Assembly (NCBI GenBank): GCA_964577685.1
Contig: CAZNZT010000005.1
Location: 4,185-68,184 of the forward strand
Origin: an uncultured Methanosarcinales archaeon
GTDB lineage: Archaea > Nanobdellota > Nanobdellia > Woesearchaeales > JACPBV01
DNA: 64,000 bases
Reading direction: 5' to 3'
Shown piece after piece: positions 35,031 through 60,994 of the stretch. A program made the translations under genes and the position numbers. The notes under the pieces were generated by a model. That model worked only from the letters and a program-made list of their open reading frames with translations, was not told the origin of the DNA and did not search any database. The stretch's first letter is position 1. The number at the start of each line of letters is the position of its first letter.

Positions 35031-36812
35031 TCAAACTAGAAATTCTCCTTTTTTGAGAACCCAAAATATCTTTTTTTCTTTGTTCACTCCATAGATATCC
35101 AACTTCTGCCTTGGGGCATTGACAACTATATCCCAATGGTACATTGTTTTCCTATCTGGTTCAAAACCTAACCCAAGAGCAACATGTATCATTCTAGCTA
35201 TTTTTTCATTGACAATAAGATAATTGCATAATTTTGCTTTGGGGTTTGTATTAACAGCAAACTCTCCGATATTATAGAAATTTCTTTTGTAGATATTTAT
35301 TATCTCTTTTGGTAGACTTTTGCTTTTTTCTATCTCCCTAATTTTTTGCCATGCTTCCTTTCTTTCACGCTTCATAGCGTTTAATATGTGGCGTGGGGCT
35401 TTTACTATTTTGTATCTGTTTCCAGAAAATTCAACAACTATAGGTCTTTTCTCTGGTATCACATAACTTCTATCTATGTTTATAACGACATCGCCTATCA
35501 TCACACCATAAATCTCCTCTGGTGTTACAAATGTTTCTCCAGAGGGAAAATTTGCATAAGAACCTGCTTTTATTCCTGTCCTCTTATAATATTCTTTATC
35601 AATTATAGACCTCACATCAGAGTCCTGAGCTGTAAATAGTCTCCTTTTCCCATCTTTTACTAGAATAACCTTAAAGTCTGTTTTATATCCATCTATAGTC
35701 TGCCCTACCACCCTAACATAATCACACTTATTAAATATATCTCTTATCCTCTCACTTCTTTTTCTTAACCTATAATAATTGATATTGCAGGTTTCAATAA
35801 ATATGTCTATTGGTAGTGTTTCTGTTACAGCATATCTCATCATAGGGTCTCTCTTGTCTATGGCTGTTTGAGGCTCATATGGATCTTTTAACATCATCTG
35901 TCCCGGGGATGTCCATCTTGTTTTTTTATCTAGGGATGGATAACCAATAGATTCTCCAAAAAAATGTTTACCATAATAGCCCTTTGCATGAATGCCAAAA
36001 CCTGCTCGTATATATTCCATCCTATCTATCTTTAAAAGTTTTGAAAAATGCTTATATTTTTTAAAAACTTCTTCATCAACATTTTTGCATAATTCACATC
36101 CCTTTATGGTCTTAATAAGTTCTGCTGTTCTTACAGGTTTAGCTAACAATGAGAATCTGTCAGATATGGATGTCATTTTTACTTTTGCCTTAAACTTTTC
36201 TGCTACCAGAGCCATAGAAAGTGCTATTGAATAAGAATCAAGGTAGTCCTCTAATGGTAACTCTGTATGTTTTTCTGACGGTATCAATACAAAAGAAATA
36301 TTGATTATCTCCCCCTTCTGTAAGTTATATCCCTCTTTCCATATTCTATTTGAAGTTTCTGTTAATTCTCTCCACCTATATCTTCTATGCCATTTACAGT
36401 TGTATGGCAAATCCAAGGTCCCAGTAAAACCATTCTCTTCTGCCCTTAGTACTATTTCTGGGCTCCTGAAGATTTCTTTAAATTTTCTTGTTTTTGTTCT
36501 CTTATTTACTGCAGATATAAAACCCTTTAATGCCTTGACCTTTTCTGTTTCAAGCTTCTTTTTTGTCCAATCATCATAAACAGACCAGATAGTTTCTAGT
36601 ATCCCTATGTTTGGGTCATCTTCTCTTGTTACGATAACATGTAAATCTCCACCAAGATTATGGATAGCTCTTGAAAGTGGAGCTAAAGAATAGAATGCAT
36701 TTTTCTGTTTTAAGCCTAAAGTAATAAAAACAACATTATTTTTTACCTTGCCTTCTAGGAGATTTGTATAATGTCTTACTTCTTCATTAAATATCCTTGT
36801 GTTATATTTCAT
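35031..36812 (-). CDS. M29-like metallopeptidase homologue, long paralogue (593 aa)
   Basis: ANFPSGETFVTPEE, TNPKAKLCN, HVALG, HWD. ATG verified at 36812. Confidence 0.45.
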   Translation of the reverse strand: MKYNTRIFNEEVRHYTNLLEGKVKNNVVFITLGLKQKNAFYSLAPLSRAIHNLGGDLHVIVTREDDPNIGILETIWSVYDDWTKKKLETEKVKALKGFISAVNKRTKTRKFKEIFRSPEIVLRAEENGFTGTLDLPYNCKWHRRYRWRELTETSNRIWKEGYNLQKGEIINISFVLIPSEKHTELPLEDYLDSYSIALSMALVAEKFKAKVKMTSISDRFSLLAKPVRTAELIKTIKGCELCKNVDEEVFKKYKHFSKLLKIDRMEYIRAGFGIHAKGYYGKHFFGESIGYPSLDKKTRWTSPGQMMLKDPYEPQTAIDKRDPMMRYAVTETLPIDIFIETCNINYYRLRKRSERIRDIFNKCDYVRVVGQTIDGYKTDFKVILVKDGKRRLFTAQDSDVRSIIDKEYYKRTGIKAGSYANFPSGETFVTPEEIYGVMIGDVVINIDRSYVIPEKRPIVVEFSGNRYKIVKAPRHILNAMKRERKEAWQKIREIEKSKSLPKEIINIYKRNFYNIGEFAVNTNPKAKLCNYLIVNEKIARMIHVALGLGFEPDRKTMYHWDIVVNAPRQKLDIYGVNKEKKIFWVLKKGEFLV

Positions 36813-43504: not shown

Positions 43505-43530
43505 TAAAAAAATAAAATTTAAAACAAAAT

Positions 43531-44460
43531 TTAGGTTGTGTGTTTTACTAGAACGCTAACTTCTTTATGTGTCTTATAATCATATATTACCTTGATATGA
43601 ACCTTCTTCTCAAAATCTCTTCCATTCACTTCTGGTGCAGATGTATCTTGGGTACATCTTACCAGCCTCTTGCCGCCATAGAGAGTAATATATCCTGATG
43701 TTTTAGTCCCATCTGACAATCCAGAACATTCAAGCCCAGGCAACCCTGACTCTACTTCTACCCAAACCTTATCTTTTTCTGGAATCTCATCAGAACAACC
43801 ACTATCTTTCTTTGATATCGCTCCAGAACCCCTATGTACTATCTCAAATGAGAATGTTATTTTATCTGTTCCTGCTACGCTTTCTTGGAAATTTTCTATT
43901 TGAATTGGTGCTGATGAGGAATAAACTGTTTTTCTCTCATTGACAACGCAAACTTTATCATTTGTTTCTGTTAAATCATCTAATATACATAAGTCAGCTT
44001 CTGCTATTGTTCCGTAAAGATAACAAAGGTCTGCTCTTATTGTATATCTATTGTTAGCTGATAGATTAGATTTAAAGTTAAATCCTGGGAAATTAACATA
44101 TGTTATTGTCCCGGGGATTATGTTTCCCTCTGAATCTATATAAGATTTCTTCAAGTCTTCATCTGGGTTCTTTGTTGTATTTGGATTACCGAAGTCAGGT
44201 GGGTAGAACCCTACAAGATTTATCTTTAGCTTCTCTTTTGGAACATCATATTCCCCTTTATTCTCCAGGTTTAAGGTGACTTCGAATGGATAATTCCCAC
44301 CATCATAGACTTCCGATGGAGGACTACCTTCTAAAAAGTTAAACTCTATTGACTCTGTACCTCCGACAAATGGTCTTTGTGTTGTTGTTTCCTCTGTACC
44401 TTGTTTACAACCAACAACGAGAAGCAATAGTCCTAAAAAAACAATTGTTTTTTTATTCAT
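43531..44460 (-). CDS. Secreted lipobox-type protein, paralogue 1 of a three-member family
   Basis: GGAGG about 10 nt upstream of ATG 44460 (the track start 44481 is GTG). MNKKTIVFLGLLLLVVGCKQ signal plus lipobox Cys. Shares the ...SAPIQIEN... block with the neighbours. Confidence 0.45.
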   Translation of the reverse strand: MNKKTIVFLGLLLLVVGCKQGTEETTTQRPFVGGTESIEFNFLEGSPPSEVYDGGNYPFEVTLNLENKGEYDVPKEKLKINLVGFYPPDFGNPNTTKNPDEDLKKSYIDSEGNIIPGTITYVNFPGFNFKSNLSANNRYTIRADLCYLYGTIAEADLCILDDLTETNDKVCVVNERKTVYSSSAPIQIENFQESVAGTDKITFSFEIVHRGSGAISKKDSGCSDEIPEKDKVWVEVESGLPGLECSGLSDGTKTSGYITLYGGKRLVRCTQDTSAPEVNGRDFEKKVHIKVIYDYKTHKEVSVLVKHTT

Positions 44461-44489
44461 CTTTATATAACCTCCTTTCACTTAAATAT

Positions 44490-45464
44490 TTAATCGAATG
44501 AAACTTCCTCAAAAATTTCTATTTCCCTCTCTATTGAATTAGCATAACCATATGACAATATTATGTTTATGGGTGTTTGATATGCCTCGTTTGGTAAATT
44601 GTCTTTATTTATTCTACAGAATATATACCCCTCACCGTTTATTAGATTTACCTCACTGCCAATCCTAGGCCTACATTCTGTCATTGGTATATTCCCAAGG
44701 GTTACTTCATCCAAGAATACTTTGTTCAAATCCCTCCAATCGTATCCTTTGTTTGGGTTTTTATCTATTTCATAATCAGGTATTACTATACCATTACCCA
44801 TATTTCTTATGAAAATCTTAAACAGGATATTATCTGATGTCACATCTTGCTCTATCTTGGTTACCGCTATAGGTGCTCCTTGACTCCCTGGGCTTACTGA
44901 TTCATCCATATCACAGACTTTTTCCCTTATTCTTGTGCTTCTTGGTTCTGGGTCAACGCATATCATCGGGCTGGCAATGGTTTGGTATTTGTATGTAGCT
45001 GTTACTATAATCTTTGGTCTGTAAAAAGGCATTCCTTGAGGTAAATCCATTACACTCATCTCAAACTCAACAGCAGAGTAGCCTCCTTGAGGATTATAAG
45101 AAGTTTTCCCCTCTAGTTCATCATTTTTTAATTGAATTCCTCCTCCACCAATTGGTGTTGAATCTTTAGGCAATATTTCCAATATATTGTTATCAAACCC
45201 GCCTATCCAGAGATATGCCTCAAAATTTTCTATTTCGTCTGGTTGCGGGAATGCTCCTTTATTTCTTACCTCCACAATAAAACTCACAGAGTTATCATGT
45301 TCATATATCTTTGTGGGTGTGTCTGCTGGAAAGTTCAAAACTAGTCCCTGTGTTCCTGTTCTATAGCTAATCTCCCGTGGTTCTTGTTTTTTTGTTCTGT
45401 TACAACCAAGACTAGTTAGAAGAAAAACTATTAGAATAAAAATCAAAAACTCCTTTTTACGCAT
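44490..45464 (-). CDS. Secreted lipobox-type protein, paralogue 2
   Basis: MRKKEFLIFILIVFLLTSLGCNR signal/lipobox. Conserved block ICVDPEPRS...KVCDMDESVSPGSQGAPIAVTKIEQ shared with paralogue 3. Confidence 0.45.
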   Translation of the reverse strand: MRKKEFLIFILIVFLLTSLGCNRTKKQEPREISYRTGTQGLVLNFPADTPTKIYEHDNSVSFIVEVRNKGAFPQPDEIENFEAYLWIGGFDNNILEILPKDSTPIGGGGIQLKNDELEGKTSYNPQGGYSAVEFEMSVMDLPQGMPFYRPKIIVTATYKYQTIASPMICVDPEPRSTRIREKVCDMDESVSPGSQGAPIAVTKIEQDVTSDNILFKIFIRNMGNGIVIPDYEIDKNPNKGYDWRDLNKVFLDEVTLGNIPMTECRPRIGSEVNLINGEGYIFCRINKDNLPNEAYQTPINIILSYGYANSIEREIEIFEEVSFD

Positions 45465-45551
45465 TCTTAATCACTCTTGAATATTAACTCTTGGTATATG
45501 ATTATATAAACTTTTCGATTTTTTGATTTTTATGATATATTCATAAAAATA

Positions 45552-46559
45552 TCATATTTTTGTTATTTTTATGCTTCTTAATGTTTTATCTTTATATGCA
45601 TATTCAAGTGTAACTACCAATGGAGAAGAGAATGTTTGAGTTTCTGAGCTATAGCCTACTTCAGATTCACATAGTATTGTACCTTTATTATCTTTGAGAG
45701 TTATAATTCCATTATTCTCGCATTTAAGTGGTTTGCCTCTTAAGGATGCCTCAATCTTAATTTTGTCCCATTCATTTGTATTGGGAGTTGTACTGCATTC
45801 TCTCTCTAGGGTTTCTTCATCAGTACTATAACTAACTACCCTGCCTGTTCCTTTATTAGCTATATAAACAATAAATCTTGGTTTCATAAGCTCTTTATTC
45901 TTTTGGTCTGGGACCATTGTTGTCTCTATCTTAGTTACTGCTATAGGTGCTCCTTGACTATCCAATACTATTGGCCTTATATTACAAGGTTTATTTTTTA
46001 TTTTAATGCCATATGGATCGGGGTCTATACATGCAGTAGCTATTGCCCTTGTCTTGTAACCATAACAATAGTTTACAATTATTTGTGCATTTTTTGTTTT
46101 TACAATATCATCTATTGTTGAATCTACTGTGAAGGTTATTATACTATAATCCCCGTCTGGATTTTCTATGCTTTTACCTTCAAGGGCTATCCTAAATTTT
46201 TTTTCGTCTAGGGTTTCTATATCCTCACCTTTAATTGAAGTGAGAGAACCTTTATTGATTTTAATTTCTATAGGTTTAATGGTGATATAAGCCATAGATG
46301 GAACTAAGAGGTTATTTTCTGCATCATTTACACCAACATAACAAGCACCCTTATTTGATATTTTGAAGGCGATTGGTAAGAATTTATTCTCAATAGAATT
46401 ATCGGGGGGTGTATCTTTTATGAACTCTACGATGATTCCTTGTGTTCCCTTGTAGATGTCTTCTGTTGTGAATGATGGTCCATGTTCCCTCTCTTTAGTT
46501 TTACCACAACTCATAACAAAGAATAATAAAAAAACCAAGATTAACTTTTTGTAATTCAT
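45552..46559 (-). CDS. Secreted lipobox-type protein, paralogue 3
   Basis: MNYKKLILVFLLFFVMSCGK signal/lipobox. ACIDPDPYG...KPCNIRPIVLDSQGAPIAVTKIETT block. Confidence 0.45.
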   Translation of the reverse strand: MNYKKLILVFLLFFVMSCGKTKEREHGPSFTTEDIYKGTQGIIVEFIKDTPPDNSIENKFLPIAFKISNKGACYVGVNDAENNLLVPSMAYITIKPIEIKINKGSLTSIKGEDIETLDEKKFRIALEGKSIENPDGDYSIITFTVDSTIDDIVKTKNAQIIVNYCYGYKTRAIATACIDPDPYGIKIKNKPCNIRPIVLDSQGAPIAVTKIETTMVPDQKNKELMKPRFIVYIANKGTGRVVSYSTDEETLERECSTTPNTNEWDKIKIEASLRGKPLKCENNGIITLKDNKGTILCESEVGYSSETQTFSSPLVVTLEYAYKDKTLRSIKITKI

Positions 46560-46569
46560 TTTTATATGT

Positions 46570-48795
46570 TCACGGCATCGTTGGCCATAGCGATGGTTCT
46601 TTATTGGAAGTTCCGTTTGAGGTATTTTTTGTATCTTCCATTGGTTCTGGTGTTGTTTGTGGTGAGGTTGGTTTTGTTAGATTCTTTGGTGTTGTATTAG
46701 CAAGGTTCATTGTCCCATTTTGTTGATTTTTTGATTTCAATATAATTAAGGATGTTGACCTATCAATTTGATATACATAATCTATCCTGATTTCATATTT
46801 ATGTGCCATTTTCTCTAATACGCTCTCAATGTTCTCTTTTCTTATTATTATTGGACATTCCCAGGTTTTATATGTATCTATTGGAAGCTCAATTTTGTCT
46901 ATTGCTTCTTTTTTTAAGATATAGGTTTCATTTTCTATCATGAAGTCTCCCCTACAGTTATCCTTCAGTTCTATACCTTCTGGAAGTTTTATTTGAAGTT
47001 TATTTATCTTTATTACTTCTCCTATCCATTTTGGTTTCATTGTTAATCCTATGCGACTAAATCCATTTTTATCTTTTGAGAGACCTATTGGCGGACTTGG
47101 TGTTCCGATTCCTAATTCTATTGGTCCAGGATCATATTCAGCTCTCGGGTTTCTATCTGTAATTCCTGCCTCTTTTAATGGATCTATGTTTCTTTTTCTT
47201 AGAGACCTCATCCTATCTAGGTCCATAAAATAAGTCATTATTGATGCAGAGGTTTCATAGTTAAATTTCACATTTAATGTAATTTTGTTTACTCCTGTTT
47301 TTAATTTTCCTTTTTCAAATATGCAGTCAAAGGGTATCTCTTCATATTGATATACCTCATATCCTTGCTCATTGCTTAGGTCTTCCCTTGTTATTTTTCC
47401 CTTGACATCATCAGCACTACAACTTACTGTAAGCCTTATTGGTTTGTTTAGGGCTTTTGCTTTTATTGTACCCCATAATACAACATCTTCATCTTGGTAG
47501 AAGGTTTTAGTCATTGGCTCAAACTCTGTTATATAAACACCATAAGTGGTGGTTTCGCCTGTATCCTTTTCCCTCCCTGTATAATAACCACCTGTTGCTT
47601 CATCAAGGCTTCTGATAAATGTTTTTTTAATTCCGATGGGTATTTCCTTAATTCTGGTTAAAAGATTATTAAAAAAACTTGATGCTTCATCTATCTCTTC
47701 TGGGCTTGCTTCCATTTGCGTCCTGATGGAACTCCACCCATAAGTCCCTCCCAAGAAGACAAGAATATAGGCTGATACTATTATAATGCCTAAAACCTGA
47801 GCAGATTTTATTCCCTTATATGCTCCATAAAAAACTACAAACAAGGGCCATACTGGAAATATGAATCTATTTACCAGTGAAAGAGATGGTACATATGTTC
47901 GGAGTATATTAAAGAAAAAGAAATCTATTATAAGCAATATACTTATGATGTAGTTTGATGTTTCTAAGTTATTGGTGGGGTTTACAAGGAATAACCATAT
48001 CATCATAGCAATAACTAAGTGTAGAACACTTGCAAAATCAGTACCGCCCATTGAAAGTATTGTTGATACTGTTACTATAAGAAGAACCCATGAAAAAAAA
48101 AGAGTATTGTTTTCTAACTTTGATGCAACAATGAACATAGAAACAAGAAGGGCTATTACTGGTAGAGACATGCTAAATAAGGTGTAGCCTAGAGACAGTC
48201 TTGTTGAAAGAATATTAGCTACTAACAACGAAACAAAGACAACAACAAGATAATATGCCAACTTATGCTCCTCTATAGAAAGGAATAAAAGAAGAATGAG
48301 GAATATTACAAGGCTGTATATAGGAAATAATATCCGAAGTAACATTAAAAGGTTACCAGATTTGATTAAATCAAAAAAAACTCTAAAATCTAAACCTCCA
48401 AAATGTAAATAAAATAAATCTATAAAATAAAAAAAGAGAGTTATAATAAAAAAAATCAAAAAAATCAAAAATGAAGGCGTAGCATTTTTTTCTTTTGATT
48501 TTGTAAGATTGCTTGTAACTCCAAGACCAGTACCAATACCTAATCCAGCACCTGTTGCTATTTTGGCTATTCCTTTTTTAGTAGGTTGTTCATTACTTAC
48601 TTCGTTTGATTCATCTTTTTTTGGTTCACTAGCTTCATCTTCCCCTCTAGTGTGTGGTTCATTACTTGCTTCGTTTCTTGCATCAATACTTTCCGAACCC
48701 ATAGGTGGAAGTCCTCCCTCAAATTGTTTGTCTAGAATTTCCCTAATCCTTTCAATAATTTTTTTATAGTCGGAAACATCTTCTCCGGTAGCCAT
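46570..48795 (-). CDS. Large polytopic membrane protein: acidic cytoplasmic N-terminus, about 10 TM helices, a roughly 400-aa extracytoplasmic C-terminal domain and a Thr/Pro/Asn-rich tail
   Basis: Hydrophobicity pattern read from the translation. No AglB WWDYG motif and no other recognisable catalytic motif. Confidence 0.5.
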   Translation of the reverse strand: MATGEDVSDYKKIIERIREILDKQFEGGLPPMGSESIDARNEASNEPHTRGEDEASEPKKDESNEVSNEQPTKKGIAKIATGAGLGIGTGLGVTSNLTKSKEKNATPSFLIFLIFFIITLFFYFIDLFYLHFGGLDFRVFFDLIKSGNLLMLLRILFPIYSLVIFLILLLFLSIEEHKLAYYLVVVFVSLLVANILSTRLSLGYTLFSMSLPVIALLVSMFIVASKLENNTLFFSWVLLIVTVSTILSMGGTDFASVLHLVIAMMIWLFLVNPTNNLETSNYIISILLIIDFFFFNILRTYVPSLSLVNRFIFPVWPLFVVFYGAYKGIKSAQVLGIIIVSAYILVFLGGTYGWSSIRTQMEASPEEIDEASSFFNNLLTRIKEIPIGIKKTFIRSLDEATGGYYTGREKDTGETTTYGVYITEFEPMTKTFYQDEDVVLWGTIKAKALNKPIRLTVSCSADDVKGKITREDLSNEQGYEVYQYEEIPFDCIFEKGKLKTGVNKITLNVKFNYETSASIMTYFMDLDRMRSLRKRNIDPLKEAGITDRNPRAEYDPGPIELGIGTPSPPIGLSKDKNGFSRIGLTMKPKWIGEVIKINKLQIKLPEGIELKDNCRGDFMIENETYILKKEAIDKIELPIDTYKTWECPIIIRKENIESVLEKMAHKYEIRIDYVYQIDRSTSLIILKSKNQQNGTMNLANTTPKNLTKPTSPQTTPEPMEDTKNTSNGTSNKEPSLWPTMP

Positions 48796-48820
48796 TTTAG
48801 AGTAAAAATTTGGGCTTGAG

Positions 48821-50032
48821 TCATTTCTTTTCTGCTACAGCCTCTAGGGTTATTATGTTTAGTACTGTCAATGGTTTTAGCTCTATAACATTATTTCCCT
48901 CTTCGATATAGTTATCAATCTTTTTGCTATAGTCTGCTCTGTCTTGGTCGATTCTTGGTAGATTGGCACCATTCACTTTAATGTCTGCCTTTTTTGTCTT
49001 TCCATCATCAACAAACTTTATTTTTAGAAACAAATCATACTTATCATCTCCGGTATCTAAAATCTCGCTATACAGGGTATCATTAATAGTAAAATAATAA
49101 GCATTTGTTATTATGTCCTTTGAATCAAATATGAGCTTTACCTGTTCAATAGAATAAGAGCCTTTATTTGTCCTGAAGATAACCTTGTTCTGCCCCTCTC
49201 TTAATATGCCAATGGGTATTTCCTGCCTATACAGGTCACCACAAACAGGAACAGATGAAAATATGTTCCTATTGTTAATGAATAAATCCAAGATGCCTAC
49301 ACTTCTCTCAGCGGTGCAATACGGGATAAATCTAATCTCTGCTTTTTCTAGATTTTGATACTCTGTGCTTGTTAGGGTGAATATATTTTTGCTTTCTTGT
49401 TTGCTAAGGTCTGTTATATCACCAAGAATCTTTACATTATCAAGACTATATTCATTTGTTTTCCAAAATTTAATACCAACACTAGAAACGCTGAATTCAA
49501 GGATATTATCTTCCTTCAATAGCCTTTTATCTAACCTTATAGGTTCTACATTCACAGAAGTTATTGAGTATTCATAAATAACCTGTCCATTAAGTTTTAT
49601 TGTTAAGATTCCTTTCCTTTTAGGAGCAGAAAAACTTAATAGTACATTATCTGTATTTTCTAAATCATCAATCTTAAATTCTACTATCTTAGTCTTCTTA
49701 TCAAACCACCCGTTTCTCACATAAATGGGGTTTATCCTAGCTAATATTTTTGAGTTGGTTGTTTCAAATATGTTTACATTGGGTAGAGTTTTGTCTTCTA
49801 TCCTCTGAGCTGGATCAAGTCTCCCTATTCCCTCAGACAATAACACAATTTCCTCCTCGTTTGTTGATTCACGAGAAGAAACAGAGGTCTTCTTTTCTTC
49901 TAATAGCTCTCTTCTTTCTTCTGTCGGAAGAAATAATATATATGCTATAATCAAAACAGAGATTATAGCTACTAATATAGCTGCATTTAACCCTCCTTGT
50001 GCTTTTTTATGAAAAAGTCTGTCTTTTTTCAT
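48821..50032 (-). CDS. N-terminally membrane-anchored extracytoplasmic protein (about 403 aa)
   Basis: ATG 50032 (the track's 50041 is GTG). MKKDRLFHKKAQGGLNAAILVAIISVLIIAYILFLP anchor, then a beta-rich domain. First gene of the minus-strand cluster. Confidence 0.45.
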   Translation of the reverse strand: MKKDRLFHKKAQGGLNAAILVAIISVLIIAYILFLPTEERRELLEEKKTSVSSRESTNEEEIVLLSEGIGRLDPAQRIEDKTLPNVNIFETTNSKILARINPIYVRNGWFDKKTKIVEFKIDDLENTDNVLLSFSAPKRKGILTIKLNGQVIYEYSITSVNVEPIRLDKRLLKEDNILEFSVSSVGIKFWKTNEYSLDNVKILGDITDLSKQESKNIFTLTSTEYQNLEKAEIRFIPYCTAERSVGILDLFINNRNIFSSVPVCGDLYRQEIPIGILREGQNKVIFRTNKGSYSIEQVKLIFDSKDIITNAYYFTINDTLYSEILDTGDDKYDLFLKIKFVDDGKTKKADIKVNGANLPRIDQDRADYSKKIDNYIEEGNNVIELKPLTVLNIITLEAVAEKK

Positions 50033-50113
50033 AAATATCACCTTTTAGAGTAACATCTACCTTATTCAAATAATAAATAGATTTATATATAAATGTTGTT
50101 ATTTTCGAATTGA

Positions 50114-54387: not shown

Positions 54388-55197
54388 CTAATACTCTCTT
54401 GGATAACTTCCTAAAATCTTAAGGAAAAAAGATTCTTCTATTGAGCTAAGAGCTTCTTTTATTTTTTCATCCTCTTTACTTCCTTGCATATCAATAAAAA
54501 ATATATAATCGCCCAGTCTTCCCTTTGATGGTCTTGATTCAATCTTTGTTAAGTTTATATTCCTCTTAGCAAATTCTCCCAGAAGATTATAAAGCAACCC
54601 TGGTTTATCAACTTGAGGGTATATGGCGATTGATGTTCTGTCCCTGCTTGTCCTTTTAGCTTCTTTTTTACTCACAACAATAAATCTTGTAACATTAAAT
54701 TTATTATCCTGAACATCTTTTTTAATTACTTTAAGATTATAAATTTCTATTGCCTTTTCTGGTACAATCGCTCCCTTATTTTTATCTTTTTGAATAGATA
54801 TTATCTTTGCAGAAACTGCATTAGAGCTTGTTAGGATTGTCTTTATGTGTGGTAAGAACTTTCTGATGAATTTTTCACATTGGTCGTAAGTTGAAGGATG
54901 AACATAAAGTTCTTTGATTTCTGAGATTTTTCCATATCCAACGAGATTGTGTTTTATTGGCAATATTATTTCTGCAATAATGTTCAAATCAAATTCCATC
55001 AAAGCATCTAAGGTTAGACCAACAGTTCCAGAAACAGAATTTTCTAATGGAACTACCCCTTCATCTACTTCATTAACAGAAACTGATTCAAAAATATCCC
55101 ATACTGTATCTTTAAAAACAATGGTAGCATTTTTGTTTCTTTTCAATGCCGCTTCATGACTGAATGTGCCTTTGGGACCAAGGGTTGCTATTTTCAT
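54388..55197 (-). CDS. pheA: Prephenate dehydratase with C-terminal ACT domain
   Basis: MKIATLGPKGTFSHEAA PDT start, ESRPSK...YIFFIDM ACT region. No chorismate mutase domain. Confidence 0.8.
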   Translation of the reverse strand: MKIATLGPKGTFSHEAALKRNKNATIVFKDTVWDIFESVSVNEVDEGVVPLENSVSGTVGLTLDALMEFDLNIIAEIILPIKHNLVGYGKISEIKELYVHPSTYDQCEKFIRKFLPHIKTILTSSNAVSAKIISIQKDKNKGAIVPEKAIEIYNLKVIKKDVQDNKFNVTRFIVVSKKEAKRTSRDRTSIAIYPQVDKPGLLYNLLGEFAKRNINLTKIESRPSKGRLGDYIFFIDMQGSKEDEKIKEALSSIEESFFLKILGSYPREY

Positions 55198-56051
55198 TTT
55201 AATTTTCCTTTTTTGACTAATTGTTCTATTATATAATCTGAATATTCTGTAGCTTCTTGTTTGAAATCCCCCAAAAAATCTGAACCCTCATTAAAAAATT
55301 TAATGAATTCGCTTCTATTTTTTCTTTTTATTATCCCTATCAATTCCCTTGTGGATTTTATGTATTCCTCTATTGCTTTTTTATTATAAGGATTTAGCAT
55401 CTCAATATCAGCATATAGTATGGGGTCTTGGTTGAGCAATCTTCCAACCATATCCATCCTTAACTTGTAGATAGGGGAAGTATAATGCAAACTTTCTTTT
55501 ACATCTATGCCTAATTTCTTCAATGTGTGTGCTATGCAGATAGTAGAAAAGTGAGTAACACCCTGTATGATAGACATCATCTTATCATGTTTCTCAGGGG
55601 TTGTTATTCTAACTAAAGCCCCATTTTTCTCCAAAATATCTTTTATCCAAAGTAACCATTTCTTTGGCCTAGCCGGACATAGGATAACTGTTTGGTTTTT
55701 GATTGTACTAACAGAAGGACCAAAAACAGGATGTGCTCCTATTACTGCGGATTTTGAGTATTTGAGCATCGCTTTTATTGGCTCTACTTTTAGTGAAGTT
55801 AAATCCATCAATAAACCGTCTTCTTTAACTAAAGGTGCTATCTTTTTTATAACATCAATGGTGACATGAATAGGAACTGAGATAACCACAACATCGCTTT
55901 TTTTAGCACATTCTTCTATCTTCAACTTTGTTCTTCTGCTTGCTATTAGAACATGACAGTTATTTTTTTCAAAAAAATTTTTAAACCACTGACCAATTTG
56001 GCCAGTTCCTCCTATAATTCCAATAGTTATCTTCTTTTTAGTTCCATCCAT
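55194..56051 (-). CDS. tyrA: Prephenate dehydrogenase
   Basis: IGIIGGTGQIGQWF Rossmann, GAHPVFGP, HDKMMSIIQGVTHF. Confidence 0.75.
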   Translation of the reverse strand: MDGTKKKITIGIIGGTGQIGQWFKNFFEKNNCHVLIASRRTKLKIEECAKKSDVVVISVPIHVTIDVIKKIAPLVKEDGLLMDLTSLKVEPIKAMLKYSKSAVIGAHPVFGPSVSTIKNQTVILCPARPKKWLLWIKDILEKNGALVRITTPEKHDKMMSIIQGVTHFSTICIAHTLKKLGIDVKESLHYTSPIYKLRMDMVGRLLNQDPILYADIEMLNPYNKKAIEEYIKSTRELIGIIKRKNRSEFIKFFNEGSDFLGDFKQEATEYSDYIIEQLVKKGKLK

Positions 56052-57181
56052 TTTTTATCCAATTTAGCTAGGGCATCGTATGCTCTAGCAAGATATAATG
56101 CATCCAATATCGCTATTGCCATCATTGCCTCTGCAACAACATATATCCTTCCGAGTAAGGTTGGATCTCTTCTTGTTATTGGGCTTAGTCTTTCTTCTTT
56201 CATTGTCCTCATATTAATTGATGTTTGTTCTACAGAGATTGTTGGTGTTGGTTTTACAGCTATCCTAACCACAATGTCTTCACCATTTGTTATGCCTCCC
56301 AAAAATCCTCCAGCATTATTAGTCCTAAATCTTACTTTCCCATCTTCTGTTAGGTATGGTTGGTCATTATTTTCAGAACCTTTCATATTAGCCACTCTAA
56401 ATCCTGATCCAAACTCTATACCTTTAACAGCACCGATGGAACATAGTGCATGGGCGATTGTGGCATTTAGTTTATCAAATACAGGCTCACCCAAACCAGG
56501 TGGCACATTATGGGCTATTACCTCTATTATACCACCTGCTGTATCCCCTTGCTCTTTTATTTCTAGAACTTTCTTTTCCATCTCTTTAACTGCTTCTAAA
56601 TCTGGACAATTAATCTCGTTTTTTCTATAATTCTTCTTTATCTCTTCATAAGTCATCTCTTTCGCTTTAATACCCATACACTCTCTTGTGTAGGCTATTA
56701 TTTCTATCCCTTCCCTTGCTAATATGAATTTAGCAACTGCTCCACCAGCAACTCTAGCTACTGTTTCTCTCCCAGAAGCTCTGCCAGCCCCACACCAGTC
56801 TTGATATTCTCCATACTTAAGGTAGAACGGATAGGTTGCATGACCTGGTCTAAAAAGGTCTTTATATTCCCTGTATTGGTCTATATGTATTTTTTTTGTA
56901 TCAACATTATAAACTATAATCCCAAGTGGTGCTCCTGTTGTTACACCATCCTGCCCGATACCAGCAAAGATTTCACATTGGTCTGTTTCCTTTCTTGGAC
57001 TATTAAGTTTACCCACGCCAGGTCTTCTTTTATCTAATTCTTTTTGGATTATTTCTTTTGTTATCTTTAATCCTGGGGGAACACCATCTATTATTACTAC
57101 CAACCCTGAGCCTTTTCCTTTACCGTAGGATTCACCACAAGTAGTTATCCTAAATATCCTTCCAAATGTGTTTCCTAAAAT
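56027..57181 (-). CDS. aroC: Chorismate synthase; true N-terminus upstream of the first canonical start
   Basis: The track starts at TTG 57103 (MVVIIDGVPPG). The in-frame upstream open stretch 57104-57187 encodes FKILGNTFGRIFRITTCGESYGKGKGSGL, the universally conserved AroC N-terminal motif (GNxFG..FRxTTxGESHG), and contains no ATG, GTG or TTG. The codon at 57181-57179 is ATT (Ile), which would give M-L-GNTFG if read as a start and lies 1 nt after the aroA stop. Confidence 0.8.
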   Translation of the reverse strand: MLGNTFGRIFRITTCGESYGKGKGSGLVVIIDGVPPGLKITKEIIQKELDKRRPGVGKLNSPRKETDQCEIFAGIGQDGVTTGAPLGIIVYNVDTKKIHIDQYREYKDLFRPGHATYPFYLKYGEYQDWCGAGRASGRETVARVAGGAVAKFILAREGIEIIAYTRECMGIKAKEMTYEEIKKNYRKNEINCPDLEAVKEMEKKVLEIKEQGDTAGGIIEVIAHNVPPGLGEPVFDKLNATIAHALCSIGAVKGIEFGSGFRVANMKGSENNDQPYLTEDGKVRFRTNNAGGFLGGITNGEDIVVRIAVKPTPTISVEQTSINMRTMKEERLSPITRRDPTLLGRIYVVAEAMMAIAILDALYLARAYDALAKLDKKWMELKRR

Positions 57182-57182
57182 T

Positions 57183-58463
57183 TTAAATCACCTCCATTTT
57201 TGCTCCTAATGCACGCATTGATTCTACATAATTCGGATAAGTAATATTGATTGCCTCAGCTGTTGTTATCTCTGTCTTTCCTTCTGCTATTAAACCTGCT
57301 AGACTAAGAGCCATCACAACTCTGTGGTCACCGTGTCCCCTTACCTTACTTCCTTTTAGGATGCTTTTATTAATAACAAGACCTTCTTCCCTTTCTTTGA
57401 TATCTGCATTCAACTTAGATAATTCTTCAGCCATGACTTTTATTCTATCAGTTTCCTTTACTCTTGCTTGAGGTACATTGACTAGGGTCGTTGTTCCTTC
57501 TGCAAAACATCCTGCAACAGCCATTGAGGGCAGAGCATCTGGGGTATTATTTAGGTCTAATTCACATCCATAAAGTTTTTTTCCCATTATCCTTATTCCA
57601 TTTTCTTCAATTAATATCTCAGCATCCATCTTTTTGAGATAATCCAAAATCGCTTTATCTCCTTGGACATCATCCGTATCTAGACCTTTAACTAAAACAT
57701 TTGAATTGGTAATAGCAGCTCCAACGATAGGGAATGCTGCACTGCTCCAGTCTGCAGGTATCTTTTTTTCAAAGCTTTTATATCTTTGATTTCCAAAAAC
57801 CCTAAATTCTGTAAAATCTTCTTTTGCTTCATATTTGATTCCTTGTTCATCTAACCAGCTTAGGGTCATTTTTATGTAAGGTATCTCATTAGGGTTTATT
57901 ACTGTGATTATACTATCTTCCTCAAGTAGGGGGCAGGCAAGAAGAAGACTTGAAACATATTGTGAAGTGAAACTATTAATCTCGGTTCTCCCTCCTTTCA
58001 TTTTTCCCCTTATTTTTATTGGACAGTATCCATTATTATTTATAGAAAGTGCCTCTGCACCAAGCTGGTTGAGAGATTTTAATAATGGTTGTATAGGCCT
58101 TGTTCTCAACGAGCTATCACCATCTAATTCAACTTCGAAGTCACATAAAGCAGCAATAATTCCTGATAATAGCCTTAAAGATGTTCCAGAATTAAGCATA
58201 TTGATTGGCTCATCAACATACCTTGGCTTATTGTCAAACCCTTCAACAATCCATTCCTTATTATTATCTGTATTTATCTTTGCTCCTAATGTTCTACAAG
58301 CGTTTACAGCAGCCATTGTGTCTTTTGAATTCAGTGGATTTATTATCCCGGATCTTCCTTCGGCAAGAGAGGCTATTATAACAGCCCTAATAGTATGCGA
58401 TTTAGAGGAAGGGACAGTAATTTCTCCTTCTAACCTGTCTGTTTTTTCAACGCACAGCTTCAT
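57183..58463 (-). CDS. aroA: 3-phosphoshikimate 1-carboxyvinyltransferase (EPSP synthase)
   Basis: VPSSKSHTIRAVIIASLAEG, LNSKDTMAAV, the GTSLRLL loop. 426 aa. Confidence 0.85.
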   Translation of the reverse strand: MKLCVEKTDRLEGEITVPSSKSHTIRAVIIASLAEGRSGIINPLNSKDTMAAVNACRTLGAKINTDNNKEWIVEGFDNKPRYVDEPINMLNSGTSLRLLSGIIAALCDFEVELDGDSSLRTRPIQPLLKSLNQLGAEALSINNNGYCPIKIRGKMKGGRTEINSFTSQYVSSLLLACPLLEEDSIITVINPNEIPYIKMTLSWLDEQGIKYEAKEDFTEFRVFGNQRYKSFEKKIPADWSSAAFPIVGAAITNSNVLVKGLDTDDVQGDKAILDYLKKMDAEILIEENGIRIMGKKLYGCELDLNNTPDALPSMAVAGCFAEGTTTLVNVPQARVKETDRIKVMAEELSKLNADIKEREEGLVINKSILKGSKVRGHGDHRVVMALSLAGLIAEGKTEITTAEAINITYPNYVESMRALGAKMEVI

Positions 58464-58464
58464 A

Positions 58465-59904
58465 TCAATCAGCCTCCAAAAAGAGCCTAAATTGTTCTTT
58501 GGCTTGGTTTATGAACATGCTATAGCCACTTATTGTAATTAGACCTAGTTTTTCAGCGTCTTTTAAAAGTTTTGTTTTTTTAGGGTTATAAACGGAATCA
58601 AATATGACAGAACCTCTTTTTGTTATTTTTCTCAGAATTTTTTTATTTATAGGTGTTTCTTCAATTTTTGGGAACATTCCCAAAGAGGTTGCATTTATTA
58701 CAACATCAATCTCCCTTAGAGATATTAAATCATCCAAGCTACCCCATAAACAATTTAACTCTTTAGCAAGCTTCTTTGCTTTGCTAACTGTTCTGTTCAA
58801 AATAATGAGATTACCTTTATTCTTAACAATACCATAGGCTATTGCTCTGGCTACACCTCCAGCCCCAATTATCAAAATGTTCTTGTCTTCTATTTTGGTT
58901 TTTGAGAGAATTGCTTTTATTGCTCCTATCATGTCAGTATTATAACCGATAAGCTTATTATTTTTTTTAATCACGGTATTAACTGCTCCAATCTTCTTAG
59001 CTGTTGGTTCTATTTTGTCCAGATACCTTATTATTCTACTTTTAAATGGGATAGTAATACTTAGACCACTAACCATAGATTTGTAATTTTTAAGGAAAGA
59101 ATTGAGATTATCAACTAAAAAATTTAAATAAATATAATTCAAATGAAGCTTTTTAAATCTTGTATTGTGGAGTATAAAGCCTTTGCTATGTTCTACTGGA
59201 TTTCCAACCAAACCAAATATTTTTGGGTCTTTCAATTTTTTTACTCTGTAAATATTCTTTAAAGTGTTAACATCAACTTGTCCAGGTGCTGATTCCATTC
59301 CTTTCTCCAATGAAGCAAAAGTTAAATATGCACCCATAGGTACACTCAGAATTCTGCTTATCTCCCCCAGTTTGCCCATACAAAAAGAGATTATCTTTGT
59401 GTTATCACTATTTGCTTTTCTTATTAAGTCAAACATATTTTTGTTGTCATCTATTGAGTTCGCAAATGTTACTATCTTTATAATATCTGGATTCAAGGAT
59501 TTTATTTTTCTGTATTTGGTTAGTATTTCTTCTCTATTTGTATTTCTGAAGTTATGGTAAGACACTATTATCTTTGTTTTTCTCTTTGATTTTATTAATT
59601 GCTTGATTGTTTCAGTTCCTGTTGATAATTCCATATCAATAAAATCCACATTAAGGTCCATCGCTTTTTTAAAAAATTCTATCCTCTTACTCTCCATTAT
59701 TTTGTGCTTTCCGCCTTCTTCTTTTTTTCTTATTGTGACTATAAGCGGTTTTGTTTTATTTAGTATCAATTTTTCTAGAATATTAGGAGTAAGGTTCTTC
59801 AAATAATCAAGTCTTAGCTCTATTATATCTGCGTACCTGCTTGCTTTTTTTATAGATTTAACTGCTTGTTTTAAGTTATAAGCTATTATGGGTACTGCAA
59901 TCAT
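58465..59904 (-). CDS. aroDE: Bifunctional type I 3-dehydroquinate dehydratase / shikimate dehydrogenase (AroD-AroE fusion)
   Basis: The N-terminal half has an AroD-like TIM barrel (IAVPIIAYNL...ELRLD). The C-terminal half has AroE motifs (SITIPFK, GAVNTV, GYNTD, IIGAGGVARA). The track start 59928 is TTG; ATG 59904 overlaps the aroB stop (ATGA). Confidence 0.8.
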   Translation of the reverse strand: MIAVPIIAYNLKQAVKSIKKASRYADIIELRLDYLKNLTPNILEKLILNKTKPLIVTIRKKEEGGKHKIMESKRIEFFKKAMDLNVDFIDMELSTGTETIKQLIKSKRKTKIIVSYHNFRNTNREEILTKYRKIKSLNPDIIKIVTFANSIDDNKNMFDLIRKANSDNTKIISFCMGKLGEISRILSVPMGAYLTFASLEKGMESAPGQVDVNTLKNIYRVKKLKDPKIFGLVGNPVEHSKGFILHNTRFKKLHLNYIYLNFLVDNLNSFLKNYKSMVSGLSITIPFKSRIIRYLDKIEPTAKKIGAVNTVIKKNNKLIGYNTDMIGAIKAILSKTKIEDKNILIIGAGGVARAIAYGIVKNKGNLIILNRTVSKAKKLAKELNCLWGSLDDLISLREIDVVINATSLGMFPKIEETPINKKILRKITKRGSVIFDSVYNPKKTKLLKDAEKLGLITISGYSMFINQAKEQFRLFLEAD

Positions 59905-60992
59905 CTGCTTTCCTTTAGTGCCCCCCAAATTATTTTTTTTGGTACCTTTATGCCAAATTTTGCTTTTCCTATTTTTTCTAATAACACAAACTCTATTTCT
60001 CTACCAACGTTTTTTTTGTCTTTTTTTAACTGTTCAATGAATTCCCTGATATCAATATTAGGTAATTTTTTAACTAATCCTGCCCTAAATAAGAGGTTAT
60101 TCTGTCTGTGCAATTCTTTTTTGGATAGCGATCCAATTTTGTTTGATATAAGCCCTTCTACTAGCATACCAATAGCAACTGCTTCTCCATGAGAATACTT
60201 TTTATAATGCGTTAATGTTTCCAGTGCATGTCCTATTGTATGACCATAATTTAACACTTTTCTAAAGCCTTTTTCTTTTTCATCTTTCATTACAATATCT
60301 GCCTTTATCTCACAACTTCTCTTTATTAATCGGATTAAGATGTTTTTATCTTTATTTAGTATCCTATCAAGATTTTTTTCTATAAAGTCAAATAGTTTTT
60401 TATCTTTTATGAGGGCATGCTTTATTATTTCAGTCAGTCCATTCCTCATTTCTTTTATTGGTAATGGTCCTAAAAGGCAAATATCTATGTAAACCCTCTT
60501 CGGCTGATAAAAAGCACCGACTAGATTCTTTCCTTCTGGCAAATCAATGGCTACCTTGCCCCCTATAGAGCTATCTACCATGGCTAAAAGAGAGGTAGGA
60601 ATGTGCACATAGTTAATGCCCCGCATATATGTGGCTGCTATAAATCCCGAAATGTCACCTACAACCCCCCCACCTAAGGAGATAATCGCTGATTTTCTGT
60701 CTAACCCAAAAGAGACAATTTTTCTCATAAGCTTCTTAAAAACCAGTAGATTCTTGTTTTTTTCTCCAGATTCAATTGATAGAAGATACGAATTAATCCC
60801 CTTTTTTTTCATCAATCTAAGAAATGTTTCTCCAAATAATTTCTTAGTATTAGAATCGGTTATTATCACATATTTATTACCTAATTCATTCTTTTTTAGG
60901 TCTAATGGAATCCTATTGAGTATACCATTATCTATTAAAATATCATATGAATTGTCTATCTGTTTTTTTAAATTCAAATGAACTTTTTCCAT
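59901..60992 (-). CDS. aroB: 3-dehydroquinate synthase (classical AroB type)
   Basis: LGGGVVGDISGFIAATYMRGINYVHIPTSLLAMVDSSIGGKVAID, HGEAVAIGM. Confidence 0.8.
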   Translation of the reverse strand: MEKVHLNLKKQIDNSYDILIDNGILNRIPLDLKKNELGNKYVIITDSNTKKLFGETFLRLMKKKGINSYLLSIESGEKNKNLLVFKKLMRKIVSFGLDRKSAIISLGGGVVGDISGFIAATYMRGINYVHIPTSLLAMVDSSIGGKVAIDLPEGKNLVGAFYQPKRVYIDICLLGPLPIKEMRNGLTEIIKHALIKDKKLFDFIEKNLDRILNKDKNILIRLIKRSCEIKADIVMKDEKEKGFRKVLNYGHTIGHALETLTHYKKYSHGEAVAIGMLVEGLISNKIGSLSKKELHRQNNLLFRAGLVKKLPNIDIREFIEQLKKDKKNVGREIEFVLLEKIGKAKFGIKVPKKIIWGALKESR

Positions 60993-60994
60993 AT

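Follow-up and report, generated by a model that had tools for sequence, protein, structure and literature searches.

Few archaea are as widespread and diverse as the Woesearchaeota, which form the most diverse DPANN group; to our knowledge, none has been cultured, no host is known for any Woesearchaeon, and their envelope is undescribed. Systems against which their surface proteins can be set include the bacterial trans-envelope hydrolases VirB1 and PrgK (type IV secretion), FlgJ (flagellum), and SpoIIQ (degenerate LytM), and archaeal S-layers such as Haloferax csg and Sulfolobus SlaA/SlaB. The closest described proteins are the large extracellular LT-domain proteins of Woese- and Pacearchaeota, for which attachment to bacterial walls has been proposed (PMC8204110; PMC9723730). 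Archaeal peptidoglycan hydrolases, which are prominent in Nanoarchaeota, kill bacteria (PMC12352652). The operon reported here was undescribed before, its sole prior description being that of transglycosylase-bearing proteins as isolated genes.

Our analysis of the window (the whole 64,000-nucleotide stretch of DNA that was analyzed) confirmed five minus-strand ORFs in the order E403-D741-C335-B324-A316 (Table 1), with spacers of 25 nt (E/D), 10 nt (D/C), 87 nt (C/B), and 8 nt (B/A), in line with the 8-90 nt of the original prediction. The ORF of E was listed from a GTG at 50041 (406 aa; 48821-50041); public gene calls instead begin at the ATG at 50032, which is preceded at 5 nt by a GGTGA motif. 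A TATA-like element is located ~50-60 nt upstream of this start codon, inside a 72-nt divergent spacer common to Pelota, and an oligo-T tract abuts the stop codon of A, which is convergent with RFC-small; this T-rich tract is likely the operon end. Taking into account the TATA box, the 8-87 nt spacers, the oligo-T end, and the overlap of the D stop and C start in 41 of 59 loci, genes E, D, C, B, and A form one co-directional operon.

Table 1. Features of the five-gene operon, in window coordinates (a slash marks the predicted cleavage site).
Feature	Position	Strand	Description	Basis
T-rich tract	43505..43530	(-)	putative terminator	read from sequence
Gene A	43531..44481	(-)	316 aa from GTG, alternative ATG at 44460; lipobox VVGC	
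Gene B	44490..45464	(-)	324 aa; lipoprotein paralogue, lipobox SLGC	
B residues 169-205	44850..44960	(-)	most conserved block of the family	invariant or near-invariant alignment columns
Gene C	45552..46559	(-)	335 aa; lipoprotein paralogue, signal peptide ends VMSC	
Gene D	46570..48795	(-)	741 aa; cytoplasmic head, polytopic TM block, ectodomain, glycosylation-type tail	
D tail, residues 689-741	46573..46731	(-)	Thr/Pro/Asn-rich	sequence reading
D ectodomain, residues 400-688	46732..47598	(-)		conserved across homologues
D hydrophobic block, residues 107-355	47731..48477	(-)	8-9 TM helices	Kyte-Doolittle scans and alignment
Gene E	48821..50032	(-)	403 aa from ATG 50032	
E residues 9-36	49925..50008	(-)	class III-like signal motif KKA/QGGLNAAILVAIISVLIIAYILFLP	motif count and alignment
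E residues 61-208, 213-304, 310-402			jelly-roll/beta-sandwich domains	AlphaFold model
TATA-like element	50084..50093	(-)	tttatatata, putative promoter element	read from sequence

The order E-D-C-B-A was found in all 49 sufficiently long Woesearchaeota/Nanoarchaeia loci, the others being cut by contig ends or having one paralogue more or fewer, and it is fixed despite divergence down to ~20-30% identity. Pelota adjoins the cluster in 45 of 47 loci and RFC-small in 53 of 65. The 137 relatives in GTDB species genomes are all titled Woesearchaeota/Nanoarchaeota or carry a generic label, bar one mis-binned record. Within the sampled lineage the cluster is universally present and syntenic, and gene order and flanks indicate that the operon is vertically inherited and ancestral throughout the sampled Woesearchaeota/Nanoarchaeia. 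Recurrence of all five genes in an identical order at 49 independent loci goes far beyond chance. The module first proposed, dedicated to the envelope and made up of a membrane platform plus multiple lipid-anchored subunits, is supported. Together with the frequent overlap of the D stop and C start, this fixed order makes it barely credible that five unrelated surface-protein genes simply lie side by side with no joint function. Inserts between C and B in two loci (L026 and L045) correspond to toxin-antitoxin cargo or an unrelated ORF, not to accessory subunits. It should be noted that lineage-wide synteny, the prepilin motif of E, and the murein hydrolase modules on D relatives (see below) were missed in the original prediction.

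Searches against Pfam and NCBIfam gave no match for any of the five proteins, S-layer families included (none at E<=1), and PDB sequence searches with single proteins and profiles found no relatives of A, B, C, or E. The initial statement that the cluster matches neither AglB, a pilus, nor an S-layer holds for Pfam, NCBIfam, and PDB searches, and remote homology searches of profiles against the PDB gave no credible match to a known transporter, S-layer, or glycosylation system. In the window-wide annotation, genes for filaments, glycosylation, or hydrolases were not detected in the vicinity of the operon.

Gene D encodes the largest of the five proteins. Its acidic head (mildly so, with 19 D/E versus 13 K/R in the first 100 residues), outside domain, and Thr/Pro/Asn-rich tail agree with the earlier description, but nine helices were read where about ten had been proposed. 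The bounds of the hydrophobic block can also be read as residues 103-355, with nine helices. In the homologue alignment this block shows weak sequence conservation and almost no conserved polar residues, and a crude hydrophobicity scan gave ~4-9 helices across most homologues. Matches of the D profile to Piezo, presenilin, PfCRT, and GPCRs in the PDB were confined to the hydrophobic block and mutually unrelated, and were therefore rejected as compositional. AglB/STT3 is a 13-TM protein with an STT3 Pfam domain, a WWDYG-type motif, and a C-terminal outside domain; D has no Pfam or NCBIfam match and no WWD motif in its sequence. The D homologues were gathered by synteny, a word-indexed search, swamped by low-complexity candidates, having given only two. 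Across 62 homologues the ectodomain has a median length of 313 aa and invariant Cys459, Cys491, and Cys614; that of the window protein has 4 Cys. The tail spans 53 aa with five N-X-S/T sequons, suggesting that it is probably glycosylated.

The first functional lead for the operon comes from the relatives of D, ~15 of 62 of which bear peptidoglycan-targeting modules (SLT, GH73, or degenerate M23) behind the conserved ectodomain. SLT scores above the Pfam cut-off in the D homologues of six loci (L071, L059, L045, L075, L084, and L047), GH73 is found in those of L041 and L044, and degenerate M23 in that of L011; fn3 modules occur at the tail position too. The SLT-bearing homologues are long (1,000-1,200 aa), the SLT and GH73 modules retain their catalytic motifs, and mapping on the E tree indicates that hydrolase modules were gained or swapped at least four separate times. 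Since the archaeon itself has no murein, the target would be the wall of another cell. We tentatively propose, at somewhat less than even confidence, that the operon encodes a lineage-wide surface complex that contacts the bacterial cell wall, with murein hydrolases in some lineages. About three quarters of the D homologues have no hydrolase, and the window D has no SLT, GH73, or M23 domain (Pfam), its tail being of the glycosylation type only; because of this, the murein link is possibly a secondary add-on to another primary role.

The products of A, B, and C are, judged by BLASTP (E=4e-24 for B and C, 8e-8 for A and B, and 4e-6 for A and C), true paralogues, as had been suggested, with A the most divergent of the three. 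Their family comprises 3,482 clusters at 50% identity in 1.84 billion representatives. The lipobox signal peptides initially recognized were upheld across >200 orthologues: a hydrophobic region followed by the lipobox Cys is present in 228 of 232 complete orthologues (157 fit the strict [LVI][ASTVI][GAS]C pattern), and this Cys is invariant (C21) in the family alignment. In A, B, and C we found the basic region, hydrophobic region, [LVI][ASTVI][GAS]C motif, and conserved Cys expected of an archaeal lipobox, suggesting that the three proteins may be lipidated at this residue. Lipoproteins and the candidate lipidation enzyme AliA (arCOG02177) occur in DPANN (PMC12462473). One public call of gene C begins 15 codons later, so that its signal peptide is lost.

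The conserved block C.DP.P...K.C...SQGAPIAVTKIE, originally attributed to all three paralogues, is the top-conserved stretch of B and C but is degenerate in A. In B it comprises C169, D171, K182-x-C184, and Q195-G-A-P198, located in the inter-domain linker and the first strand of domain 2; the model has a pLDDT of 60-80 over residues 169-205. Overall, the AlphaFold model of B (pLDDT 91.2) is a tandem Ig-like sandwich, with beta-sandwich domains at residues 41-170 and 199-318. A thioester-type Cys...Q cross-link in the C.DP...SQGAP block was considered and dropped, as the fold is unlike that of thioester domains. Conserved Cys pairs are present in both the lipoprotein and D alignments and, like the lipobox and the sequons, speak for a surface location. 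Long atypical homologues of the lipoproteins and of E showed no informative fused domains except one fn3.

The D ectodomain and the A, B, and C proteins are equal in size (~310 aa). Their hhalign comparison gave E=0.004 over 199 colinear columns (0.065 with larger profiles), a score equaled by the E family control, and the best hmmsearch match had E=0.05, with D proteins making up 30 of 44 sub-threshold matches. The ectodomain is possibly a further, highly diverged version of the lipoprotein fold; as the alignment is colinear but non-significant and the control with E scores the same, we do not claim it as a fourth A/B/C paralogue.

Archaeal S-layer proteins typically have tandem Ig-like folds and lipid anchors, the operon is universal at a housekeeping locus, and most D proteins are without hydrolases, all of which would fit a structural envelope layer. 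In that case, the archaeon's own S-layer-like coat or its membrane anchorage would consist of the lipoproteins, the D ectodomain, and E, and the hydrolase tails would be weapons added later. We regard this as possible but doubtful, because no S-layer family was matched by any of the five proteins in Pfam or NCBIfam and because separately annotated S-layer genes are among the top-expressed genes of Woesearchaeota MAGs (PMC11606122). The subunits are also small, E is conserved far above usual S-layer proteins, and three orthologous paralogues have been retained since the clade root, unlike known one- or two-protein lattices.

Gene E encodes a protein with a prepilin-like N-terminus (K10-A11/Q12), a nearly invariant TM helix, a disordered linker, and three jelly-roll/beta-sandwich domains. 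The proposal that E is anchored at its N-terminus stands; the anchor is not a plain one, but a prepilin-type (class III) [KR][GAS]Q motif followed by an invariant helix. The pattern [KR][GAS][QED] is present in 40 of the 56 listed E homologues, some of whose ORFs are truncated or over-extended, and Q12, G14, N16, A17, A18, and L20 to P36 are conserved at >=90% in a 76-sequence alignment. With [KR] at -2, G/A/S at -1, and a hydrophobic helix right after the site, E is predicted to carry a class III signal and is probably cleaved at [KR][GA]/Q by a prepilin peptidase.

The AlphaFold model of E (pLDDT 81.2) shows the TM helix and three CBM-like jelly rolls, which by Foldseek resemble accessory domains of GH35 beta-galactosidases and the carbohydrate-binding domains of BcsB at TM-scores of ~0.2; the fold matches for B and E are all generic at this level. 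The E family has 604 members. Identity to the window protein has a median of 43% and a maximum of 61% in the fetched loci, and is 52-66% among the 120 best database hits. Such high conservation is unusual for a host-contact protein and would fit only an invariant ligand.

The [KR][GAS]Q motif and almost invariant helix would also suit a modular minor or tip pilin with lectin domains, in which case D, C, B, and A would be envelope accessories of a type IV filament encoded elsewhere. Epd-like (system 1) and 4A filament systems do exist in DPANN, and class III signal peptides are also found on non-pilin binding proteins (bioRxiv 10.64898/2026.04.22.720090). We find a filament accessory set distinctly improbable: among the Pfam-scanned window ORFs and in locus L001, neither a prepilin peptidase nor any type IV filament gene (assembly ATPase, platform protein) was detected, and these three components are likewise missing next to the operon in ~60 loci viewed with 8-kb flanks, its neighbors there being Pelota and RFC. 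In addition, E, at 403 aa, is much larger than structural pilins.

In the preferred reading of a complex contacting bacterial walls, D would be the membrane-embedded base, its variable head and TM block holding the ~310-aa conserved ectodomain outside the cell. C, B, and A would be anciently diverged, lipid-anchored tandem Ig-like subunits, probably assembling around the D ectodomain, and E, anchored by its pilin-type N-terminal helix, would display three lectin-like jelly rolls. This assembly would serve to keep the archaeal cell attached to a surface of glycan, for which bacterial peptidoglycan is the most plausible candidate. At the contact, the lytic transglycosylase, GH73 glucosaminidase, or degenerate LytM that about one quarter of the sampled lineages have at the C-terminus of D would cleave murein or hold on to it. 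The D of the window organism has only a short tail, probably glycosylated, so that its complex would bind or scaffold without cutting. A more far-reaching version, which we consider rather unlikely, is that the operon is the core of an unrecognized contact apparatus docking Woesearchaeota onto bacteria, where E, as a pilin-anchored lectin, and a hetero-oligomeric Ig-like collar of A, B, C, and the D ectodomain grip murein, the D tail breaches it locally, and the polytopic base marks the exchange site.

Another possibility is a scavenging module, in which E and the lipoproteins capture fragments of wall or other glycans freed by the hydrolase tail and the D TM block imports them. The CBM-like jelly rolls of E, the hydrolase modules of D relatives, and the polytopic nature of D would be in keeping with this, and DPANN, being auxotrophs, are thought to live on bacterial debris (PMC11537232). 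We nevertheless consider it quite unlikely, and the uptake alternative raised in the original prediction was not borne out, since the operon has no ATPase, energy-coupling gene, or permease family (Pfam), the lipoproteins are tandem Ig-like and B has no solute-binding-protein fold, and the weakly conserved D TM block combines a near absence of conserved polar residues with a variable helix number and no transporter family match.

The operon is universal in the sampled lineage, holds a fixed position, and encodes large protein families without a curated model, and the recurrent fusion of murein modules to one subunit ties a core envelope structure to the bacterial cell wall. This makes testable, at the protein level, the older idea of some Woesearchaeota preying on bacteria or attaching to them, and the operon offers targets for imaging (E or A/B/C), for assays on murein (recombinant tails), and for multimer prediction. 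If true, the contact apparatus would be to archaea what the wall-piercing components of secretion or feeding-tube machines are to bacteria and would provide the first molecular handle on archaeon-bacterium episymbiosis. As for novelty, the folds from which the proteins are built are common ones, and their function is one that we infer.

Compared with known systems, E resembles BcsB, the periplasmic subunit of bacterial cellulose synthase, in having a single TM anchor and jelly-roll carbohydrate-binding domains (Foldseek E ~1e-5), but the TM-score is only ~0.2, the anchor is at the opposite end, and there is neither a BcsA-type glycosyltransferase in the operon nor a BcsB Pfam match. With the sugar-binding proteins of the Sulfolobus bindosome and type IV pilins, E shares a basic residue, G/A/S, Q, a ~25-residue hydrophobic helix, and a large globular C-terminal part; it differs in having three jelly rolls instead of a solute-binding-protein fold or pilin head, and in the lack of filament genes nearby. 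Sulfolobus SlaA/SlaB and the Haloferax S-layer glycoprotein are similar to the operon products in their Ig-like sandwiches, lipid or TM anchors, probable N-glycosylation, and lineage-wide presence, whereas the operon encodes five distinct proteins where those systems have one or two, and its sequence conservation is high.

The bacterial trans-envelope hydrolases share with D relatives the same SLT, GH73, and LytM/M23 set, including a non-catalytic form, as well as membrane tethering and a presumed local action on murein, although sequence kinship is restricted to the hydrolase modules and the operon has no secretion ATPase or channel family. The LT-domain proteins (PMC8204110; Vigneron et al., 2022, PMC9723730) come from the same lineage, and SLT-bearing D homologues are likewise membrane-anchored and extracellular. 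These studies cover single SLT-identified proteins, without the D ectodomain, the polytopic base, the lipoproteins, E, or the operon, and the window D differs from LT-domain proteins in having no SLT domain. The role proposed for both is the same, i.e., attachment to or attack on bacterial walls, and the long SLT-bearing D homologues probably overlap with the proteins counted in PMC8204110 and PMC9723730.

Five minus-strand genes, which we call E, D, C, B and A in order of transcription, form the operon of the window: A, B and C encode lipobox lipoprotein paralogues, D a polytopic membrane base and E an N-terminally anchored protein. The successive spacers (E/D, D/C, C/B and B/A) measure 25, 10, 87 and 8 nt, and a T-rich tract lies directly after the stop codon of A. 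For E, public gene calls use the ATG start, which has a GGTGA motif 5 nt upstream. Housekeeping genes flank the operon on both sides. Next to E come Pelota, the beta and alpha subunits of PheRS and the shikimate pathway; beyond A lie genes for RFC-small, a PRC-barrel protein, a Cas4-type nuclease, an aminoacyl-tRNA synthetase, FEN1 and a PAN-like AAA ATPase. The whole window has a G+C content of 30-37%, and it contains no compositional island.

Operon features (window positions) and peptidoglycan-related modules in the tails of D homologues (by fetched locus)
Feature	Position	Strand	Detail
Gene E	48821-50041	-	406 aa from GTG; 403 aa from ATG 50032
Gene D	46570-48795	-	741 aa
Gene C	45552-46559	-	335 aa
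Gene B	44490-45464	-	324 aa
Gene A	43531-44481	-	316 aa
tttatatata element, upstream of E	50084-50093	-	in the 72-nt divergent spacer common to Pelota and E
SLT/GH23 in D tail, Pfam			L071 (2e-9), L059 (1e-11), L045 (3e-9), L075, L084, L047
SLT in D tail, just under Pfam cut-off			L053, L033, L035, L069
SLT in D tail, by similarity to other SLT modules solely			L030 (phmmer 2e-15)
GH73 glucosaminidase in D tail, Pfam			L041 (1e-16), L044 (1e-19)
M23 in D tail, Pfam			L011 (1e-7)
fn3 modules in D tail			C-terminal to the hydrolase in several homologues

The original prediction had seen no known catalytic or structural motif, and none of the five proteins matches Pfam or NCBIfam at E<=0.01. Searches of PDB sequences likewise gave no match, either for the five proteins or for the A/B/C and E family profiles. 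Relatives are nevertheless numerous: a word-indexed database holds 109 for the B family, all of those with names being "hypothetical" and from Woesearchaeota or Nanoarchaeia, and the E family has 604. An exhaustive search of 1.84 billion representatives with the lipoprotein profile returned 3,482 clusters at E<=1e-3, including 1,775 at E<=1e-30. A scan of GTDB with one genome per species gave 137 relatives, of which the best 80 loci were fetched. These are titled Woesearchaeota, Nanoarchaeota or Nanoarchaeia, apart from the generic "uncultured Methanosarcinales archaeon" carried by dozens of records (accessions beginning CAZ or CAY) and one bin, L045 (JAFCCF010000001.1), an operon-bearing contig deposited as "Candidatus Aminicenantes bacterium". 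Since archaeal RFC, Pelota and the operon are present, we regard these labels as mis-binning or generic placeholders.

Among the best 80 loci of the 137 relatives, 49 have the order E-D followed by three lipoprotein genes, two have four lipoprotein genes and four only two; the others are cut by contig ends. Pelota adjoins E in 45 of 47 loci and RFC-small adjoins A in 53 of 65. In 41/59 loci the D and C genes overlap, so that their translation may be coupled. The clade's common ancestor evidently had the operon already, inheritance since then has been vertical, and with such a conserved order, the idea that these are five genes without joint function is very improbable. Median identity to the window proteins (E 43%, A 38%, B 34%, C 30%, D 27%) indicates that E is the most constrained subunit and D the least.

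Other genes of the window also deserve mention. A block of bacterial-type lipid genes in this archaeal genome (13642-23259, plus strand) encodes two thiolases, DUF362, an SDR/FabG-like reductase, an acyl-CoA dehydrogenase, ETF beta and alpha, two PlsC-type acyltransferases and a bacterial-type NAD-dependent glycerol-3-phosphate dehydrogenase (GpsA). It suggests ester-lipid or G3P-backbone metabolism and agrees with reports of bacterial lipid genes in Woesearchaeota. On the minus strand, 54388-63794 encodes the shikimate/aromatic amino-acid pathway in full (DAHP synthase, DHQ synthase, fused DHQ dehydratase/shikimate dehydrogenase, EPSP synthase, chorismate synthase, prephenate dehydrogenase and prephenate dehydratase), a biosynthetic capacity that is unusually rich among DPANN archaea; a split transketolase comes next. 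A 593-aa ORF without a Pfam match (35031-36812, minus strand) lies between M24 and M29 peptidase genes; it may be another conserved unknown, likened by context and length to a 594-aa gene without a Pfam hit in the same M24/M29 context of L001, a distant relative. Two further ORFs, of 504 aa (10156-11670) and 276 aa (30002-30832), both on the plus strand, have no Pfam match at all.

The paralogy predicted for A, B and C was borne out (B~C 4e-24, A~B 8e-8, A~C 4e-6), as was their shared block, C.DP.P...K.C...SQGAPIAVTKIE, in the mature parts, which also have two conserved Cys pairs. Their lipobox signal peptides hold across the family: the Cys is invariant and is preceded by a hydrophobic segment in 228 of 232 complete orthologues, 157 of these 228 satisfying the strict rule [LVI][ASTVI][GAS]C. 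It should be noted that the public call for C (L085 3282-4226) begins at Met16, 15 codons late, and its 320-aa product would lose the signal peptide and half of the lipobox context; since 65/67 orthologues retain the signal peptide, the longer ORF is the better call. In an AlphaFold2 model of B with a 62-sequence alignment (pLDDT 91.2, pTM 0.83), a signal helix precedes two domains of beta-sandwich type (41-170 and 199-318), and the most conserved block of the family lies in the linker and first strand of domain 2. Foldseek matched this model in the PDB to generic tandem Ig-like proteins only (integrin alpha legs, SpaP C-domains, chaperone-usher pilins and chaperones), all at TM-scores near 0.2. 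Lipoproteins, and the candidate lipidation enzyme AliA, are reported to be prevalent in DPANN (PMC12462473).

The paralogue set is not completely fixed across lineages: five loci (L021, L023, L050, L058 and L082) have a fourth lipoprotein paralogue, or paralogues too divergent for typing as A, B or C. In one groundwater Woesearchaeon, C and B are separated by inserted genes (L026 3865-5300), namely a nucleotidyltransferase/HEPN pair and a gene for a RelE-like toxin.

In D, the acidic head that had been predicted is only mildly so, and the hydrophobic block (residues 103-355) contains nine helices by our count, not about 10; the outside domain with its Cys and the 53-residue Thr/Pro/Asn tail with five sequons are present. 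The odd helix number places the C-terminal domain outside, provided that the N-terminus is inside. Landmarks mapped over 62 full-length homologues divide D into four parts. The head, of 3-284 aa, is followed by a TM block whose length and number of helices vary; then come a conserved ectodomain, at a median of 313 aa roughly as large as mature A/B/C proteins, and a tail, which measures 0-362 aa. The ectodomain may be a fourth paralogue of A/B/C: profile-profile comparison aligned it colinearly with them over ~200 columns at E-values of 0.004 and 0.065, but the unrelated E family reaches an equal hhalign score. Paired motifs of D and the lipoproteins are CY.Y.T.A with F.F.T.AY, F.I.I.N.G.G with LGITL.N.W.G, and L.YGY with DY.Y; hmmsearch gave a best E-value of 0.05, D proteins making up 30 of the 44 sub-threshold hits. 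That this base and its lipoproteins serve as a scavenging or uptake module is quite unlikely.

E is anchored as predicted, although not by a plain anchor: its N-terminus is laid out like the class III (prepilin-type) signal peptides of archaea, with the consensus [KR][KR][GAS]Q-x-G-x-NAA[IV]LVAIIA.LII.YILFLP. Homologues with intact starts have a basic residue at -2, G/A/S at -1 and Q (rarely D/E) at +1; Gln at +1 is typical of EppA-type substrates. From Q12 to P36 nearly every residue is at least 90% conserved (76 sequences), so that the helix probably packs specifically against other helices and is not a mere anchor. In the model of E (76 sequences, pLDDT 81.2), a disordered linker joins a TM helix (14-34) to three beta domains, which match galactose-binding-like/CBM-type jelly rolls (GH35 beta-galactosidases, reelin and BcsB) at the fold level only. 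Epd-like and 4A type IV filament systems occur in DPANN, and class III signal peptides are found on non-pilin binding proteins too (bioRxiv 10.64898/2026.04.22.720090); a pilus accessory set is, in our estimate, slightly less probable even than an uptake module.

Taken together, we conclude firmly that the operon is ancestral and lineage-wide and that its products are exposed at the cell surface: D is a polytopic base with a domain on the outside, A, B and C are lipid-anchored paralogues of tandem Ig-like fold, and E is a triple jelly-roll protein with a pilin-type anchor.

A Pfam scan of the D family revealed that the tail often carries peptidoglycan-targeting modules. The SLT modules retain E-S, G[IV]MQ and AYNGWG motifs and the GH73 modules LES and GYA[ST]D, whereas the M23 module of L011 no longer has the His ligands and in this is similar to LytM domains without catalytic activity. 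Eight SLT domains (L047, L084, L075, L033, L035, L069, L030 and L053; absent from L071 and L059) carry a Cys-rich insertion, HCC.ESGKN....CK.S.D.SC, between the catalytic E-S and G[IV]MQ motifs; we know of no such insertion in bacterial SLT domains. A tree of E unites ten of the hydrolase-bearing loci in a single clade, the sister of the window's clade. Within the hydrolase-bearing clade GH73 replaces SLT in L041, the sister of which, L035, has SLT; L059 (SLT) and L011 (M23) fall in distant clades. These placements imply that modules were gained or swapped independently four times or more at this one position of D.

Our leading, still tentative reading is that the system serves to contact a surface made of glycan, bacterial murein being the most plausible one. 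Murein-targeting modules of three different classes have been recruited, repeatedly, to the outward end of D; E folds like a lectin, with a conservation that would suit an unvarying ligand, for instance the glycan of murein; archaea of this group, to our knowledge, make no murein themselves; and the lineage is already suspected of attaching to bacteria. We hold this at somewhat less than an even chance because most lineages lack hydrolases; the Pfam scan found no peptidoglycan-targeting module in the window D or in about three quarters of its family. The main rival, a structural envelope layer, is unlikely but stands ahead of the other alternatives; in a metatranscriptome, separately annotated S-layer genes are among the top-expressed Woesearchaeota genes (PMC11606122).

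A Woese-/Pacearchaeota-specific module of 51 families, mostly unknown, contains murein-like transglycosylase proteins, large and extracellular, for which binding to the walls of bacteria was proposed (Castelle et al., 2021; PMC8204110), predatory Woesearchaeota were proposed on the same basis (Vigneron et al., 2022; PMC9723730), and archaeal peptidoglycan hydrolases, prominent in Nanoarchaeota, have been shown to kill bacteria (PMC12352652). The operon offers a universal, well-defined five-protein module that bears on what it is that Woesearchaeota attach to. Uncharacterised surface proteins abound in DPANN genomes, so a finding of this kind is no surprise in itself. Literature searches found no paper on this operon, its lipoprotein family or E. 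Membership tests against known systems assigned it to none. As judged from sequence and models, the five-gene system is categorically new in family and architecture, its folds being common and its proposed function drawn from fusions in relatives; the transglycosylase proteins described earlier probably overlap with the transglycosylase-bearing subset of D, the one point in common with previous work.
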